IMG/VR virus record: IMGVR_UViG_3300013368_000005
Coordinates: 64,001 to 128,000 of that record
Origin: a virus
Taxonomy: Duplodnaviria > Caudoviricetes
Reading direction: 5' to 3' (one strand)
Length of the DNA stretch: 64,000 nucleotides
The first letter of the stretch is position 1. Every line of letters starts with the position of its first letter. This document shows positions 18,280 to 28,413 of the stretch, piece by piece. Below the pieces are notes generated by a model. It worked only from the letters and a program-made list of their open reading frames with translations, searched no databases and was not told the origin of the DNA. The translations under genes and the position numbers were made by a program.

Positions 18280-19221
18280 TTAACCAAATCTATTTTCTGA
18301 ATTACATAAACATCTTCCGTTGCAATTACATGTGCCATTTCCTCTGGTGACGCATGAACATAGTTCATAAACATCACATGTACATCCAGATGTTGGGGTT
18401 CTACTCACACACATACAATCTGTATTACATGTACATGCTTCAATTGTTGTTCTACTAACACAGTTACATACATTATCTGCATTACAAGTACAATCTGGAG
18501 AAAATGTTCTATCAACACATAAACAACCATGTTGTATACATATTGTCTCTGCTGTTCTGTCAACACAGGTACAACCAGTATCCGAATTACTAGTGCATTG
18601 AGTGCCTGTTCTAGTGACACATAAGCAATTAGATGGACAATCACCGCCAGTTACTTCCCCTGAAGTTCTTGAGTTACAATCACAATTTGTTATTCCTACT
18701 CTCGATACGCATGTACATAAAATATTAGAATCACATGTGTCAACTGCTGTTCTTGATACACATGAACAAGTATTATCATTACAACTACAAGAATATCCTG
18801 TTCTAGCAACACATGAACATGAGACATTCTCAATACATTCTAATTCTGATGTTCTAGCCACACAACTACATATATTACTTGAACAAATATCGCCTGATGT
18901 TCTTGCAACACAATTACAAGATGTATGAGCATCACAGGAGAGTTCTGAAGTTCTAGTAACGCAATTACATGTAGTATCTACATGTGAATCACATGTTAAT
19001 GGCATTATATTATCCATAATATCCTCTATATCACCTATAGAGACAGTATTATCTTTTAATGCAAAATTATCTATATGAGCTATACAAGTTCCAAGGTTTC
19101 TTTGATTATTCATATCATCTAATAAATCTTTTAATTGACCTAATGAATTATATTGAGGAGGATTTGTATAACCCTTTTTTATTTGTAATAAGTTTTTTAA
19201 TCTTATTAAACTCTTATTCAT
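18280..19221 (-). CDS. Cys-rich CxCVxRT-repeat protein, putative radical SAM modification substrate
   Basis: 47 Cys counted; 12 CxCVxR units plus 2 variants after a ~75-aa Cys-poor N-domain; RBS AGGAGG; near two rSAM genes. Confidence 0.8.
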   Translation of the reverse strand: MNKSLIRLKNLLQIKKGYTNPPQYNSLGQLKDLLDDMNNQRNLGTCIAHIDNFALKDNTVSIGDIEDIMDNIMPLTCDSHVDTTCNCVTRTSELSCDAHTSCNCVARTSGDICSSNICSCVARTSELECIENVSCSCVARTGYSCSCNDNTCSCVSRTAVDTCDSNILCTCVSRVGITNCDCNSRTSGEVTGGDCPSNCLCVTRTGTQCTSNSDTGCTCVDRTAETICIQHGCLCVDRTFSPDCTCNADNVCNCVSRTTIEACTCNTDCMCVSRTPTSGCTCDVYELCSCVTRGNGTCNCNGRCLCNSENRFG

Positions 19222-19237
19222 AATTTATCCTCCTATA

Positions 19238-20011
19238 TTATTTATATAAAATAGTCCATCTAAAGCCACCAACAAAACTTCCTGAATTACCTACAAATAT
19301 ATTTGTAGCATCAGCTCTAATCCATGTTTCGCCTAAATATCCTTGAGGATTTTCAATAGGCATAATCATTATATTTGTTGGTGTAAATGATAATCCATGG
19401 GCTATAGTAACTTCATTATTACTTCCAGCAAAATTTGCTATACCACTTTTATCTGTTATTTTTTGACTTAATTTTTCTGCTATTGAAGTAGCAAAATTAG
19501 GATCTTCTCCTAATGCTTTAGCTAATTCAGATAATGTATTTAATGTCTCAGGCGAAGAATCAATTAAATTAGTAATTGCTGTTTCTACCCCTTCAGTTAT
19601 TTTAGCATCTGTTTCCGTTTTATTATAGTAATCAACTAAAACGTTTGCTATTATCTCTTCTACTGTTAATTGAGGTTTGTTTAGATTAGGTACACCTTTA
19701 AATGCAATAAAATTAAATACTGTATCTATACCTGTAGTCCCCCAATCATTTCCTAAAGACATTATAGCTGTACCTTCTGGATTTATTGTGTATGACGTTT
19801 CAGGAATATATTTACCAGCAATAAATACAAATAATAAATCATAATTAATATTAAAATTTTCTATACCAATATTTACACTAGGTGCAGTTCCTGTAATAGT
19901 AATATTATTTTTTCTATATCCTATAATACCAGTAGCAGCAGCTTTTTCAAATTGCATAAATAAATCATTGCTTATTTCGTGACCTGTTACTTTTCCTCCT
20001 ATACTAGCCAT
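19238..20011 (-). CDS. tail fibre protein
   Basis: Classic fibre motif LIDSSPETLNTLSELAKALGEDPNFAT; C-terminal TIAHGLSFTP beta domain; late motif at 20038-20049. Confidence 0.85.
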   Translation of the reverse strand: MASIGGKVTGHEISNDLFMQFEKAAATGIIGYRKNNITITGTAPSVNIGIENFNINYDLLFVFIAGKYIPETSYTINPEGTAIMSLGNDWGTTGIDTVFNFIAFKGVPNLNKPQLTVEEIIANVLVDYYNKTETDAKITEGVETAITNLIDSSPETLNTLSELAKALGEDPNFATSIAEKLSQKITDKSGIANFAGSNNEVTIAHGLSFTPTNIMIMPIENPQGYLGETWIRADATNIFVGNSGSFVGGFRWTILYK

Positions 20012-21018: not shown

Positions 21019-22557
21019 CTAGAGATTTTTTATTATTTGCGTAAGAGCTTCAGGTATCAATTCTGTTACACTAGTATACATATCTTCAATTTTATTATTT
21101 AAGAATTGCTTTTCTAAAATTAATCCAGTATATTCTTCGATAGTTAAACCTTCTTCTTCAGCACGTTCTAATATTTTATTATAAGTAGATTTAGCTAATT
21201 TTATTGTAACAATATTATCTGATTTAATCTCAACTTTATTAGCTGATATCATATCTGCTTTGAGTGTAAACTTATTATTAGTCTCTTCGCTATCTATTAA
21301 ATTAAATTGTGTACCTCTTGAATCACATAAACATGCTGGGTTGTCTGGATTATTTCCTATGGTTGAACTTATTTTATTATCTTTTCTATCTAATACTCCC
21401 AATTTATAATACTCCTCTACTTCTTTTTTTATATATGATTGTATTTCTTTTTCTATTTTACTCATTTGACATCTATACCCTCTAGATACAGATAATATAG
21501 AACCATTTTCACAAAGATTTTCTGCTATACATCTATAACAATGATAGCAGTCACAATCTGGATCATCTATTTTACAACTTAAATCATTATTATCATACTC
21601 TACGAATAATAATCTTTTTTGATCGTCTATACCATCAAATATATTACCTATTATATATTGTCTTTCTGGATCATTAAAATATATATGATGACAAGGTGAA
21701 ATATCTCCATTGGCAGTAATAGTAATAAAACTATTACCAGCTCCACAAGGTTTATTCGAAAAATCACAAGCATTAGATAAACTTCTGTCTAATGGTGCAT
21801 AATTTCTTATTTCATTTAAATTACCTTCCTTTTCTACTCTATTTAATATATAGTCTGCTATTTTGCCTAATTGTTCTTTATACATATTAACATCTTTTTG
21901 AGTCCAATCATTACTATGAATAGGCATAAACCATATATGTTTTAAACCCCAATCTTCTCTAAAGAATTTATAACTTTCAAATAAATATTTCATAGAAAAA
22001 TCATTTAAACATCCATGTATGCTTAAATTATCAGGTTTATTTTTGAAAAGATTTTTCCATTTAGGGATATTCTTTTCTACTATTTGAAAACTACCTTTTT
22101 TATTATGTGTTATTCTAAAAGCATCTTGAACTTTTTGAATACCATCTACAGATAATTGAACAGTAAGATTAACGTTATATATTCCTTTACTAAGTATTCT
22201 TTCTAATTCTGTTGTCAGTATGGTACCATTTGTTATCATATTCATAGACACGGGTATCTTTGTTATACTACTTATAGCACTAGCTTCATCGATTATAAAT
22301 TCCAATATCTCTGGCTCTAATGTTGGCTCTCCTCCAAATAATAATATATTTACCCGTTGCTCTCCAAATCCATTATCTATATTTTTTTTCGCATTGTCAA
22401 ATAAGAATTTAATACCTTGATTAGCAACTTCATAAGACATTTTATTCTTATTATGTTTTTCGAAACAATATGAGCAAGCTAGATTACAATTTTCTGTAAC
22501 TAGAAAACTTGCTGCAGTGGGTTGTAAAATCTTTTTAATGTCGATTATTTTTATCAT
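21019..22557 (-). CDS. radical SAM/SPASM peptide maturase-like enzyme with C-terminal extension
   Basis: CNLACSYC, FGGEP, TNGT, SVDG; SPASM PCGAG...GDISPCH...IGNI...CDCYHCYRC...C; late motif at 22577-22588. Confidence 0.93.
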   Translation of the reverse strand: MIKIIDIKKILQPTAASFLVTENCNLACSYCFEKHNKNKMSYEVANQGIKFLFDNAKKNIDNGFGEQRVNILLFGGEPTLEPEILEFIIDEASAISSITKIPVSMNMITNGTILTTELERILSKGIYNVNLTVQLSVDGIQKVQDAFRITHNKKGSFQIVEKNIPKWKNLFKNKPDNLSIHGCLNDFSMKYLFESYKFFREDWGLKHIWFMPIHSNDWTQKDVNMYKEQLGKIADYILNRVEKEGNLNEIRNYAPLDRSLSNACDFSNKPCGAGNSFITITANGDISPCHHIYFNDPERQYIIGNIFDGIDDQKRLLFVEYDNNDLSCKIDDPDCDCYHCYRCIAENLCENGSILSVSRGYRCQMSKIEKEIQSYIKKEVEEYYKLGVLDRKDNKISSTIGNNPDNPACLCDSRGTQFNLIDSEETNNKFTLKADMISANKVEIKSDNIVTIKLAKSTYNKILERAEEEGLTIEEYTGLILEKQFLNNKIEDMYTSVTELIPEALTQIIKNL

Positions 22558-25178: not shown

Positions 25179-25895
25179 TTATCTTATAGAATTTAATAGT
25201 TTTATCAAAAATGTCATATCTGTCCGTTTAACTATTTCTGATGTACTCTTCTTTGTAGGTAAAGTTCCTCTTATAAATTGAGTTAATGGTATCATTGCAT
25301 CTATAAATTCATTATAATAATTTATATGCCAGATACAGGTGGAATCTATACCTACAAAAGAAAATGCTGTTAAATACTTATATATCCTAAATTCATTTAT
25401 TTTTTGTCTAAGTGAGATTACATCGTTTATAGTAATGTGTGTTTGTTCACCTATCTTCTTTTCTTGCCATGTAAAATTAGCTGGTCTAGGTTTTTGATCC
25501 TGTTGAATATTACACTGACATGCTATTTGACACATATCTTGACAATAGCTTTGACAAGTAGTTAAACATGCTTTTTCACATGTAAATTGACATAACATTT
25601 GACAATTTTCTTGGCAATTTAATTCACAACCAGTTTGACAAGCCGTTTGACAAACAGTTTGGCAAGTTTGACATCCTTGTCGTTCACATTGGCATACTGA
25701 CAAACATGTTGCTAAGCATGCTTCATTTACTAATTGACAAGCATTTTCACATTGATTGCATTCTGCCTCTATGTCCATACACATACATGTATTCATACAA
25801 GCATCTGAACAACTGCTATTTGCTAAAGTTACGTTATTAGAATCATTCAAGAAGTCAGGAATAGTTATTTCAGTACCTTTTAAAAAATCGCTCAT
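25179..25895 (-). CDS. CXXX-repeat protein fused to a tail-protein-like C-terminal domain; putative rSAM substrate
   Basis: 26 Cys in ~100 aa, including 12 consecutive Cxxx units; start refined to MSDFLK (AGGAGG RBS within the 3' end of the rSAM gene). Confidence 0.82.
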   Translation of the reverse strand: MSDFLKGTEITIPDFLNDSNNVTLANSSCSDACMNTCMCMDIEAECNQCENACQLVNEACLATCLSVCQCERQGCQTCQTVCQTACQTGCELNCQENCQMLCQFTCEKACLTTCQSYCQDMCQIACQCNIQQDQKPRPANFTWQEKKIGEQTHITINDVISLRQKINEFRIYKYLTAFSFVGIDSTCIWHINYYNEFIDAMIPLTQFIRGTLPTKKSTSEIVKRTDMTFLIKLLNSIR

Positions 25896-25900
25896 TTCGA

Positions 25901-27145
25901 TCACCTCCTGTTAAATTGAGTTTTAAATAATTCATTTGACTCACCTGCTAACGTATTCATTATATTTATCGATGTATCTAAGCATATATTATAAAATTTA
26001 CATAATATTTCTGGAACTATTGTTAAATCGCCACAGGAAAAATAATTGTTTATAGAGCAATACCCATCACATATATTATGGAGTCTGCATGTCTTACACC
26101 TTTTTGAATCAGAACACCTGACTTTTTTTACATCAAACGAGTTTATAATTTCCCATCTTTTATCATTATAGATTTCAGTGAATAAATTACCTATTATAAA
26201 TTTATCTCCATTTTCTCTGTTTCCTACCATTTCTTGGCAAGAATATATTTCTCCATCGGGACCTATTGATGCAAATCTATTAGAACCTAATCCGCATCTA
26301 CCATATGCAGGTGCATCTGTAGCATTTCTAAACGATGCAGTTTCATTAAATCTATTAATCTTTTTTATATTACCAAATGCATAATCAAATTGCGAAATAG
26401 ATATATCTCTACCTTCTCTTATTAATTCTATATACCAATTAGCAACTTCATTGATCGCTATTACTAGATCATTAACCTCTTGATTAGTCCATTTAGTAAA
26501 TACATTAACAATAAAAAATATATTATTATATCCTTTTTCTATAGCAAATTTACAATTATGCAATAATTGTTTACAATTATCATGATCTAATGTCATTCTA
26601 AAAGTCATATTAGGATTTAATTTTAGAGCTTTAGGGATATTATTTATTATTAAATCAAATGATGATTTTCCATTATGAAGAGGTCTATTTAAATCTTGTG
26701 TAGGTTTATCTCCATCAATACTGATCATAATTCCAATATTATTATCTTTTATAAATTGTAATCTTTCCTCATTCAATAATGTACCATTGGTCGTCATAGA
26801 TAATTGAAAATTATTATTACATTGCTTTCTAATATATTTAGTCAATGGTACAATTATTTCATCCCATTTGAGCATGGGTTCTCCACCAAAGAAATTGATA
26901 CTAGGAATGTCCCCTTGTATTTTAGAATTTTCTATAATAAAATCTACAGCTCTTTTTGCAGTATCATAAGACATTTCTTTAGCATATTGATCTATAAAAC
27001 AATACTTACATTTAAGATTACATTTTTGTGTAACATTGAGAAATATGGAAGTTATTAATGGTAAGTCTCCATCTTTCCATATTTGCTCTACTGTTCTAAA
27101 ATTATTATTTTCGCATTGTTGATTTACACATTGTTCACAATTCAT
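25901..27145 (-). CDS. radical SAM/SPASM peptide maturase-like enzyme
   Basis: CNLKCKYC, FFGGEP, TTNGT, SIDG; SPASM RCGLG...GEIYSCQ...CKTC...CDGYC...C; start refined to MNCEQC (AAGGTGG RBS). Confidence 0.93.
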   Translation of the reverse strand: MNCEQCVNQQCENNNFRTVEQIWKDGDLPLITSIFLNVTQKCNLKCKYCFIDQYAKEMSYDTAKRAVDFIIENSKIQGDIPSINFFGGEPMLKWDEIIVPLTKYIRKQCNNNFQLSMTTNGTLLNEERLQFIKDNNIGIMISIDGDKPTQDLNRPLHNGKSSFDLIINNIPKALKLNPNMTFRMTLDHDNCKQLLHNCKFAIEKGYNNIFFIVNVFTKWTNQEVNDLVIAINEVANWYIELIREGRDISISQFDYAFGNIKKINRFNETASFRNATDAPAYGRCGLGSNRFASIGPDGEIYSCQEMVGNRENGDKFIIGNLFTEIYNDKRWEIINSFDVKKVRCSDSKRCKTCRLHNICDGYCSINNYFSCGDLTIVPEILCKFYNICLDTSINIMNTLAGESNELFKTQFNRR

Positions 27146-27207
27146 ATTAATTACCACCTTTAAAAAATAATTAAAAAACCCATTACGAGTTTTTTAATTA
27201 TTATATT

Positions 27208-28413
27208 TTATGAGAAATAAGCACCACCAAGTGTAATCCATCCAGAAGTTGTTTTTAATTTTATTACTTTATTTATACTATCTATCCATAACTCATTTTC
27301 TAAAGCATTAACAGGTTCCATAGTCTGAATGTAATATGTCGGTTTCTTAGATAGCATGGCATCAACTTCAGATTTTGTATATACCATATTAGTATCTACC
27401 TTAGAAGCTATCTGTTGGATTATAGTGCTTGACATATTGGGATTACTTGCCAACATATTAGAAAGTTGGGTCAAAGTAGCTAAATCTGTTGGGGAAGCAT
27501 TGATTATACTTTGAATTAAATCTTGAGTTTCTTGTTTTGTATAAGTATTATATCCATCAGCCTTTGATGTAAAGTAAGTTATTTGATCTTCGGTAACAAA
27601 TTTGTTATACATATCTTGAACTATACTCTCTGCTCTGATAGCTATATCATCAGCAAGTTTTATTGATGTTATAGATTTATCTGCATAATTTTTGGTTGTA
27701 AGAACTGTATTGGCGTTTAAATCATAAAATCTAGTATAAAAAAATATAAATAATGCAAACTCTCCTTGATTTAGGGCATCATTTGGGTTTTTAATTACTA
27801 AATCATCGCCTTTTACTTCATACTTTCCACTAAAATTATAGCCTCTAACAATTACAGCCATCTTATCTTGAGCCAAATCATAATTAGCTATCGGATATGG
27901 TATTTTTATTATCATCTGTTTATCTCTAGTAGCATGTACATAAATAGATTTACTAGCTGTAACTGCTATTTTATCAATAGCCTCTAAGGATTCTGCTAAT
28001 GTACTTCCATCTTCCATAATTACAACACTTGATAATGTTGTAGGAGCGATACTCTGCTCCATTGCAGCATAAAGTCCTTTTGTAGAATAAGTACTTTGTA
28101 AGAACTCATCTGAAGAGAATGCTGTTGTTAAGAAATCTTGTTGATCTTGTATAGTAAGCCATATTAAACCATCGTGCTTGTATACATTACCAGTTTCTTT
28201 AACATAATAAACTTTAGTCATTGACGTATATTGTAATAGGTCTTTATCAGCTTCGGTTGATAGATATATTATTTCATTTAATATTATACGTTGTTCATCT
28301 GATAGATCAAAAAAAGATTCTTTTGTATCAGTGCAATATATTATTTGATTTGTAAATAATCGAGTATTTCCTAACATATCTCGTATTATTTCTTTATAAC
28401 TAACAAATGACAT
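27208..28413 (-). CDS. tail fibre protein
   Basis: IINASPTDLATLTQLSNML (fibre motif variant), YTKSEVD, ENELWIDS; N-terminus paralogous to 23510..25090; late motif at 28439-28450. Confidence 0.8.
   Translation of the reverse strand: MSFVSYKEIIRDMLGNTRLFTNQIIYCTDTKESFFDLSDEQRIILNEIIYLSTEADKDLLQYTSMTKVYYVKETGNVYKHDGLIWLTIQDQQDFLTTAFSSDEFLQSTYSTKGLYAAMEQSIAPTTLSSVVIMEDGSTLAESLEAIDKIAVTASKSIYVHATRDKQMIIKIPYPIANYDLAQDKMAVIVRGYNFSGKYEVKGDDLVIKNPNDALNQGEFALFIFFYTRFYDLNANTVLTTKNYADKSITSIKLADDIAIRAESIVQDMYNKFVTEDQITYFTSKADGYNTYTKQETQDLIQSIINASPTDLATLTQLSNMLASNPNMSSTIIQQIASKVDTNMVYTKSEVDAMLSKKPTYYIQTMEPVNALENELWIDSINKVIKLKTTSGWITLGGAYFS

Follow-up and report, generated by a model that had tools for sequence, protein, structure and literature searches.

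A cysteine-repeat protein encoded beside a phage tail fibre is a candidate radical-SAM substrate and a putative fibre-tip cap

The window analysed here, a stretch of 64,000 nucleotides (G+C 26%) that spans bases 64001-128000 of a provirus record of 186.6 kb in IMG/VR (~75% complete), encodes a tail-fibre protein, a Cys-repeat protein that we designate P0001, and two radical-SAM enzymes, all on the same strand (Table 1). As had been stated in the original prediction, P0001 directly follows the fibre gene, with 16 nt from the fibre stop to the P0001 start and an AGGAGG site between the two. Matches to a sigma-70-like promoter were no commoner than in shuffled sequence (96 versus 93.7).

Table 1. 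Positions, within the window, of the genes and features of the fibre, Cys-repeat protein and radical-SAM module.
Feature	Position	Strand	Basis
Terminator-like hairpin and T-run, closing the unit 3' of P0001	18246..18271	-	
Cys-repeat protein P0001 (313 aa, 47 Cys)	18280..19221	-	translation, motif counts
Cys-repeat array of P0001, residues 79-313, 14 CxCxxR units with variable spacers	18283..18987	-	
N-terminal domain of P0001, residues 1-78, three helices, predicted fibre-tip attachment	18988..19221	-	AF2, family alignment
AGGAGG ribosome-binding site, 7 nt 5' of the P0001 ATG	19229..19234	-	
Tail-fibre protein, 257 aa	19238..20011	-	PHROG tail-fibre families, best phrog_1197 5.6e-18
C-terminal beta-sandwich knob of the fibre, residues 184-257	19241..19462	-	AF2 pLDDT 76-90
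SPASM-less radical-SAM enzyme, 302 aa	20097..21005	-	Pfam Radical_SAM 5.2e-16
Radical-SAM/SPASM enzyme, 512 aa, with C-terminal extension	21019..22557	-	Pfam Radical_SAM 1.5e-11, SPASM
Substrate-like motif G-N-N-P-x-N-P-x-C-L-C-D-S-R-G in the extension of the 512-aa enzyme	21310..21357	-	

Cys accounts for 47 of the 313 residues of P0001 (15%), versus 1.1% of residues in ten neighbouring proteins. A recount of the motifs agreed with that made previously, giving 12 copies of CxCVxR followed by T, V or G together with the variants CDCNSRT and CNCNGRC, and hence 14 CxCxxR in total, while 20,000 composition-preserving shuffles of the array produced a mean of 0.55 and a maximum of 5. The N-terminal ~78 residues were correctly described as Cys-poor, as they hold only C46 and C77. 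CxC pairs recur at intervals of 6-19 residues, and the array ends with the motif C-x-C-N-G-R-C-x-C-N-x-E-x-R-F, a tail that is conserved in the family described below. Tandem Repeats Finder reported no DNA array at the period of the P0001 unit, the motif Val is written with four codons, and DNA identity among the units is higher in the motif cores (66%) than in the spacers (39%). The array is therefore an old protein repeat that is maintained at the protein level and is under selection, and the earlier claim of selection on the motif rather than recent slippage holds.

Searches of Pfam, NCBIfam and PHROG (Pfam and PHROG at E<=0.01) matched P0001 to no named family, in line with the earlier remark that its motif was not recognised from a named RiPP class, and neither metallothionein nor tail-fibre chaperone models gave a match (Pfam, PHROG; E<=0.01). 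The sequence has no signal peptide, no Gly-rich motifs and no recurring cleavage sites separating the units. AF2 predicted residues 1-78 with pLDDT values of 82-90, placing helices at residues 5-15, 27-43 and 62-70, and gave no confident fold for the array (pLDDT <50). A fold search with the N-domain model returned Z values of 3.9 or lower, from which no fold could be named; the best match in a PDB sequence profile search had an E-value of ~0.5, and a search of the ESM Atlas gave no usable match.

Relatives of P0001 were collected by an all-library HMMER search, which yielded 28 representatives at E<=1e-3, and by a profile search that added nine; a word-indexed search using P0001 alone as query returned one relative. 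The members, all of them unnamed and from metagenomes, make up a small family of proteins 168-538 aa long with 17-63 Cys each (10-16% of residues). Each combines a conserved helical N-domain of ~80 aa with C-x-C-x-x-R-T units in an array that varies and a C-terminal tail that does not. Residues R41, C46 and H49 of the N-domain are invariant. The consensus unit is C-[SDTN]-C-[NVDQ]-[STGA]-R-T, spaced mostly 8-11 residues apart, and of the 386 CxC units in the family 76% are followed by Arg and 53% by Thr. The near-invariance of C, V, R and T that had been proposed from P0001 thus stands for the two Cys and the Arg and holds for Thr in about half of the units, but fails for Val, which is particular to P0001 at a position that is N, V, D or Q in the family. 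In several members the middle of the array is interrupted by irregular inserts rich in aromatic residues or Gly, and in P0006 a non-Cys domain of ~140 aa is inserted there. A likeness between this insert and a 282-aa tail protein of the window was marginal by BLASTP (E 0.004 over 40 residues) and is given no weight here.

A search for longer proteins that fuse fibre and array had no matches, which is weak evidence. In 50,697 phage records, neither megablast with the 13.5-kb region nor tblastn with P0001 or P0011 as query gave a match, and no cultured phage bearing the module was found in the phage-record searches. Unannotated gut-phage contigs contained only radical-SAM/SPASM genes with 23-29% identity to the 512-aa enzyme, which are not orthologs, and full-text searches of the literature returned no paper describing such a system.

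The CX3CX2C motif of radical-SAM enzymes lies at residues 24-31 of the 512-aa enzyme and at residues 13-20 of the 302-aa enzyme. The latter has the radical-SAM cluster only and lacks a SPASM or auxiliary Cys pattern. The 512-aa enzyme matches Pfam SPASM with 21.5 bits, which is exactly the cutoff value; its auxiliary Cys are arranged as C271-x12-G-x4-C289 followed by residues 328, 335, 337, 340, 343, 349 and 363, and it continues into a C-terminal extension of ~130 aa. It lacks an N-terminal RRE, with alignments to the SCIFF, QhpD and CcpM models beginning at approximately position 90-100 of the models. The extension contains a copy of the array unit that is also present in four of five inspected orthologs, and the occurrence of a unit copy inside the SPASM enzyme ties this enzyme to the array. 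Neither enzyme reached the curated NCBIfam cutoff of a named maturase family: the 512-aa enzyme scored 202 bits against a cutoff of 340 for PapB, 128 against 350 for CXXX-repeat maturases and 112 against 425 for SCIFF, and the enzymes of the window scored 68-74 bits against a cutoff of 525 for TIGR04463. Judged by their sequences, the enzymes are peptide-maturase-type radical-SAM proteins whose nearest relatives, at sub-cutoff scores, are the PapB, SCIFF and CXXX maturases; the named families that score best with the 512-aa enzyme form thioethers. Within the array, C-x-x-R and C-x3-T, counted from the second Cys of a unit, are candidate donor-acceptor pairs by analogy with C-x-x-Q/D in CrpA and C-x3-D in PapA.

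Sixteen distinct loci were assembled through identity look-ups and IMG/VR scans, the latter for a subset of the family and for the fibre knob, and their neighbouring genes were identified using phmmer and hmmsearch. This revealed a fibre gene with the common knob beside the Cys-repeat gene at all 16 loci. Orthologs of both radical-SAM enzymes were likewise present throughout (E 1e-92 to 1e-146 for the 512-aa SPASM type; phmmer E 1e-59 to 1e-81 for the 302-aa type), except where the contig ends, as in L006, which stops before the small enzyme, and L003, which begins after the large one. A scarcity of radical-SAM genes beside homologs, named in the original prediction as evidence against a substrate role, is not what these loci display, since each of the 16 readable loci places the homolog beside SPASM radical-SAM orthologs or at a contig end. 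The commonest gene order is fibre, SPASM enzyme, Cys protein and small enzyme; in the window and in L003 the enzymes come first, and some loci carry a third or fourth radical-SAM gene. No peptidase or ABC exporter was conserved among the called genes of the 16 loci. M14 and S8 peptidases are encoded a few kb downstream in L007, and L009 has a weak Peptidase_U32 match.

The phages bearing the module are of jumbo, PBSX/Mu-like myovirus and siphovirus types. In the PBSX/Mu-like myoviruses, the module comes after Baseplate_J and Mu_Gp48 and ahead of the holin and amidase genes, with no second fibre gene, and in L004 and L006 it constitutes the sole fibre-like content after the baseplate. In the siphovirus locus it lies 3' of TMP, Dit and Sipho_Gp37, and in the large phage of the window it stands among several fibre genes. 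The position of the module corresponds to the receptor-binding slot in phage tails.

The fibre genes have only their C-terminal ~75 aa in common across the loci. When the knob model was compared with solved structures using VIA-align, it matched the C-terminus of the K64-1 depolymerase (Z 8.5), the receptor-binding domain of the Pam1 tailspike (Z 8.1), the foot of the R2 pyocin fibre (Z 7.5) and H-type lectins (Z 6.3-6.5); these Z values are moderate, and seven of the top nine matches are the ends of phage fibres or tailspikes. Further structural matches to the model were found in BFVD. The Cys and radical-SAM genes of the module are absent from 24 of the 34 IMG/VR loci that have the knob, and the knob therefore does not need a cap. 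At three of the loci with a knob and no module (L024, L027 and L029), a diversity-generating retroelement (DGR) takes up the slot downstream, with a weak FGE-sulfatase-like target, a bAvd match at 1.6e-33 and a reverse transcriptase match at 3.8e-20, an arrangement consistent with the slot housing determinants of host recognition. A common 'LSLxELK' N-terminus between the P0001 family and DGR targets near related knobs was considered and dropped, as the HMM E-values were 0.18-6.4.

In one job, using our own alignments, a complex was modelled in which P0001 residues 1-84 were combined with fibre residues 130-257 in three copies. The model reached an ipSAE of 0.76 (individual runs 0.76, 0.54 and 0.78) versus 0.12 for the best control, with alignments that lie outside the calibration of the score, in which 58 of the 80 solved complexes attained the mark, as did 2 of the 110 mismatched pairs. 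The runs agreed on at least 89% of the contacts, and the pLDDT of the partner was at least 68. In the model, a single N-domain sits on the three-fold axis and touches the same residues of all three fibre chains, with predicted contacts at fibre residues 196-198, 222-228 and 243-246 and at P0001 residues 1-7, 24-29, 31, 56-64 and 66, which reach all three chains. The knob contacts include the invariant residues P222, G224, G227, E228, S243 and G244 and are more conserved than the remainder of the knob (0.79 versus 0.60, p=0.01), while the N-domain shows no such excess of conservation at its contacts. Recall of a known structure by the model is unlikely, as neither the fold search nor the PDB profile search found a similar solved complex or fold. 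The model thus predicts that one N-domain of P0001 caps the fibre knob at its three-fold tip.

To follow how the array evolves, we compared L013 and L006, a close pair from different samples whose Cys proteins are 86% identical. The dN/dS ratio was 0.10 for the SPASM enzyme, 0.21 for residues 1-115 of the Cys protein and 0.25 for its C-terminal third, versus 1.15 for residues 116-175 in the central array. Non-synonymous to synonymous changes numbered 26:6 in this central segment and 8:9 in the remaining protein (Fisher p=0.022; one pair). This one pair lends weak support to the central segment being a fast-evolving contact site on a conserved scaffold, which the mid-array inserts of other members would also suit.

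Among known systems, CrpA and CrpC of Methanococcus voltae offer a close parallel on the enzyme side. CrpC, a SPASM radical-SAM enzyme of TIGR04463 described in 2026, installs ranthionine links on the 29-kDa protein CrpA, as demonstrated by mass spectrometry, and CrpA carries a 17-residue Cys motif in 10 copies (PMC13692751). As this was shown experimentally, protein-sized radical-SAM substrates have precedent. Like P0001, CrpA is a full-size protein in which an N-terminal region for recognition precedes an array of Cys motifs at the C-terminus, its gene adjoins that of a SPASM radical-SAM enzyme, AlphaFold is unsure of its array, and its repeat period of 17 residues resembles the ~17 of P0001. 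The motifs, compared by description rather than by sequence, differ (C-x-x-Q/D in CrpA versus C-x-C-x-x-R-T in P0001). Unlike the CrpA/CrpC system, the window pairs an enzyme lacking an N-terminal RRE with an additional SPASM-less radical-SAM enzyme that is always present, and places P0001 in a phage tail-fibre module with a predicted fibre-docking N-domain. The best-scoring families for the 512-aa enzyme are PapB, whose substrate is PapA (freyrasin), and the ranthipeptide, SCIFF and CXXX families (NF047865, TIGR03974, TIGR04115/TIGR04119). PapB-type systems share with it the CX3CX2C motif, the SPASM Cys cluster and a substrate with repeated Cys, and the C-x3-T and C-x2-R of P0001 may recall the C-x3-D of PapA and the C-x-x-Q/D of CrpA. 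In contrast to PapA-type systems, P0001 is 5-10 times longer, has no RRE, protease or exporter with it, and probably ends up as a part of the virion. P0001 looks more like the CrpA/CrpC precedent than like a released peptide.

On the fibre side a close comparison is gp38 of S16/T2-type Straboviridae, a monomer that sits on the tip of the trimeric long tail fibre gp37 through an N-terminal attachment domain (PMC12032242, citing Dunne et al. 2018). The genes of both gp38 and P0001 adjoin a fibre gene, and both proteins combine conserved termini with short conserved motifs and variable segments; capping of a trimeric tip by a monomer is, for P0001, a prediction of the complex model. The scaffold of gp38 is a Gly-rich polyglycine-II, whereas that of P0001 is based on Cys and presumably needs enzymatic cross-linking. 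No likeness of the two in sequence or fold was detected (Pfam, PHROG, fold search; N-domain Z <4), and the hosts of the module phages, unlike those of gp38 phages, are anaerobic low-GC bacteria.

Taken together, the co-occurrence of enzyme orthologs throughout the loci and the failure of P0001 to match any named family make the assignment of P0001 as a radical-SAM substrate of an undescribed type well supported, as judged from gene context. A modified virion protein, rather than a released peptide, is suggested by the size of the proteins, the lack of a conserved peptidase or exporter, the receptor-binding slot and the predicted docking. The substrate part of the originally predicted new RiPP class is therefore upheld by context, but the RiPP-class framing is less apt for proteins of 168-538 aa that travel with no conserved peptidase or exporter. 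We give slightly better than an even chance to P0001 being a fibre-tip cap or adhesin whose Cys array is cross-linked by the two radical-SAM enzymes. From the complex model and the gene linkage, P0001 would be the distal piece of the tail fibre, with its N-domain capping the three-fold tip of the lectin-like knob. The two enzymes would probably staple the array, which has no fold of its own, in the reducing cytoplasm, where the virion is assembled and for which the lack of a signal peptide is apt. This is suggested by the family of the enzymes and their strict co-occurrence, with the SPASM enzyme most likely making Cys thioethers of the ranthionine or sactionine type. Such stapling could yield a compact tip, resistant to proteases and redox conditions, that touches the host surface, perhaps through the fast-evolving middle segment, for which support is weak, and the protein might then function much as a gp38-type adhesin does on a RiPP-like scaffold. 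A broader and more tentative reading, which we hold somewhat short of evenly balanced, is that the fibre knob, the SPASM enzyme, the Cys-repeat adhesin and the second radical-SAM enzyme form a portable four-gene cassette across the myovirus, siphovirus and jumbo tails of anaerobe phages, building a stapled, non-globular receptor-binding cap via RiPP-type radical-SAM chemistry.

Phage cargo genes commonly sit between tail-fibre and lysis genes, and P0001 could be a long RiPP-type precursor. In that case the radical-SAM enzymes would recognise the N-domain as a leader, and lysis would free the array, either intact or cut into its units, as a signalling or bacteriocin-like product that has no connection with the virion. 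The layout of a leader-like domain and a Cys-rich core, the adjoining maturase-type radical-SAM/SPASM enzymes, the M14 and S8 peptidases downstream in L007 and the weak Peptidase_U32 match at L009 would suit such a precursor. We nevertheless consider it unlikely, given that no peptidase or exporter is conserved over the 16 loci, that the proteins reach 168-538 aa with no recurring cleavage sites between units, that a fibre gene with one specific knob co-travels at every locus, that in L004 and L006 nothing else fibre-like follows the baseplate, and that this specific knob is the predicted docking site of the N-domain.

Binding to the fibre C-terminus, itself a prediction of the model, would equally be expected of a tail-fibre assembly chaperone of the Tfa or T4 gp38 type that aids trimerisation and then either remains on the virion or leaves it, with the array incidental to host recognition. 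The genes for Tfa, P2 gpG and T4 gp38 directly follow their fibre genes, and P0001 too lies directly 3' of one. This role is distinctly unlikely in our judgement: no Pfam or PHROG chaperone family matched, the knob occurs in 24 loci without the Cys gene, and a chaperone leaves two dedicated radical-SAM enzymes, 17-63 Cys, a variable number of units and a fast-evolving mid-array unexplained. Metallothioneins typically have dense CxC pairs, such as fill the array, and metal ions are bound by certain phage fibres. The tip might accordingly be an unmodified metallothionein-like or iron-sulfur structure in which CxC ligates Zn, Fe or Cu while the enzymes act elsewhere, and an array with no predicted fold in the absence of ligands would be in keeping with this. 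Metal ligation does not, however, account for the Arg and Thr that follow CxC, for the two maturase-type radical-SAM enzymes co-occurring at 16 of 16 loci or for the copy of the unit motif borne by the SPASM enzyme, and no metallothionein family matched; we regard this alternative as very unlikely.

Radical-SAM thioether chemistry is familiar from small secreted peptides, and phage receptor-binding proteins fold with the help of chaperones, metals or self-cleaving domains. To our knowledge, no phage receptor-binding protein is stapled by dedicated enzymes. Protein-level radical-SAM thioethers have been known since 2026 from one archaeal protein, the role of which is unknown (PMC13692751). If the cross-linked cap is real, it would be the first case of a viral host-recognition protein that is cross-linked by enzymes, and radical-SAM modification at the protein level would gain a function, namely the production of a stable host-recognition tip from a reducing cytoplasm. 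It would also provide biochemistry with a new substrate motif, C-x-C-x-x-R-T, and its enzyme pair, extend the known types of phage adhesin by one in which the docking of N-domain and knob is modular and could be reused in phage engineering, and join the fields of radical-SAM peptide chemistry and phage receptor binding in one cassette.

The window contains a further Cys-repeat system, a 418-aa radical-SAM/SPASM enzyme and a CXXX-repeat protein at 25179-27157. There a fibre gene is followed by the enzyme and then by the CXXX-repeat protein, which has a tail-module domain. P0001 itself gave no NCBIfam match to CXXX-repeat targets of the TIGR04114/TIGR04117 type, from which its Cys spacing differs, and it has no detectable homology to the CXXX protein of the window, which is served by one enzyme rather than two. 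In that protein, Cys recurs at every fourth residue, and the array stands at the N-terminus with the domain of tail type at the C-terminus. The two systems nonetheless share the same operon region and the same logic.

The SPASM radical-SAM enzyme of the module itself carries a copy of the unit presumed to be its substrate (see table), and this copy is kept in the orthologs encoded by three of the compared metagenomic or IMG/VR loci, L004, L006 and L007, while the ortholog from L002 is shorter and lacks it. Self-priming, autoinhibition or action as a tether are possible roles for the embedded unit. Two further orthologs of this enzyme were noted: that of L012 (1498-3303; 601 aa) gives an N-terminal match to an intein-splicing domain (Pfam, 30 bits, below cutoff), and that of L014 (6235-8559; 774 aa) includes an unexplained additional segment of ~300 aa.

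Tandem arrangement of Cys-repeat family genes was found in L003 (2129-4342), where the first gene encodes a 252-aa protein with the N-domain and without the canonical C-terminal tail. The product of the second, which begins 40 nt after it, is 471 aa long; 91 of its residues (19%) are Cys, it contains 24 CxCxxR units, and it lacks the N-domain and possesses the canonical tail. The pair may represent one gene that has been split, or a tip made of two pieces; two family genes are likewise present in L030. L003, the closest relative, is also the only locus in which the two membrane-protein genes beyond the terminator of the Cys-repeat gene are kept (E 1e-44). Neither of their products has a family match, and the two may be lysis genes.

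Features located in the window
Feature	Position	Strand	Remarks
Copy of the presumed-substrate unit	21310-21357	-	C-L-C-D-S-R-G after N-P-x-N-P; C-terminal extension of the SPASM enzyme
Genes for two membrane proteins of 326 and 123 aa	16823-18201	-	after the terminator; own ribosome-binding site each
Radical-SAM/SPASM enzyme, 418 aa	within 25179-27157	-	PapB model 228 bits, below cutoff
Cys-repeat protein, 241 aa	within 25179-27157	-	4-nt overlap with the 418-aa enzyme gene
Fibre gene of the second pair	27208-28413		directly followed by the enzyme/Cys-repeat pair

The same fibre knob occurs with no radical-SAM module in L024 (5776-9915), L027 and L029. Downstream of the knob, these three phages encode a 125-aa protein, an FGE-sulfatase-like protein of ~500 aa, bAvd and a reverse transcriptase. 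Together these genes form a diversity-generating retroelement, which occupies the slot of the fibre tip. Distant radical-SAM/SPASM proteins (23-29% identical) are encoded by 17 human-gut phage records (MT835472, MT837846, OQ749652 and 14 others), and maturase-type radical-SAM genes may therefore be widespread among gut phages.

The window also contains a sister system, composed of a second radical-SAM/SPASM enzyme and a second Cys-repeat protein. In the N-terminal half of this 241-aa protein every fourth residue is Cys. The last ~100 aa of the protein give a match to the terminal part of phrog_37329.
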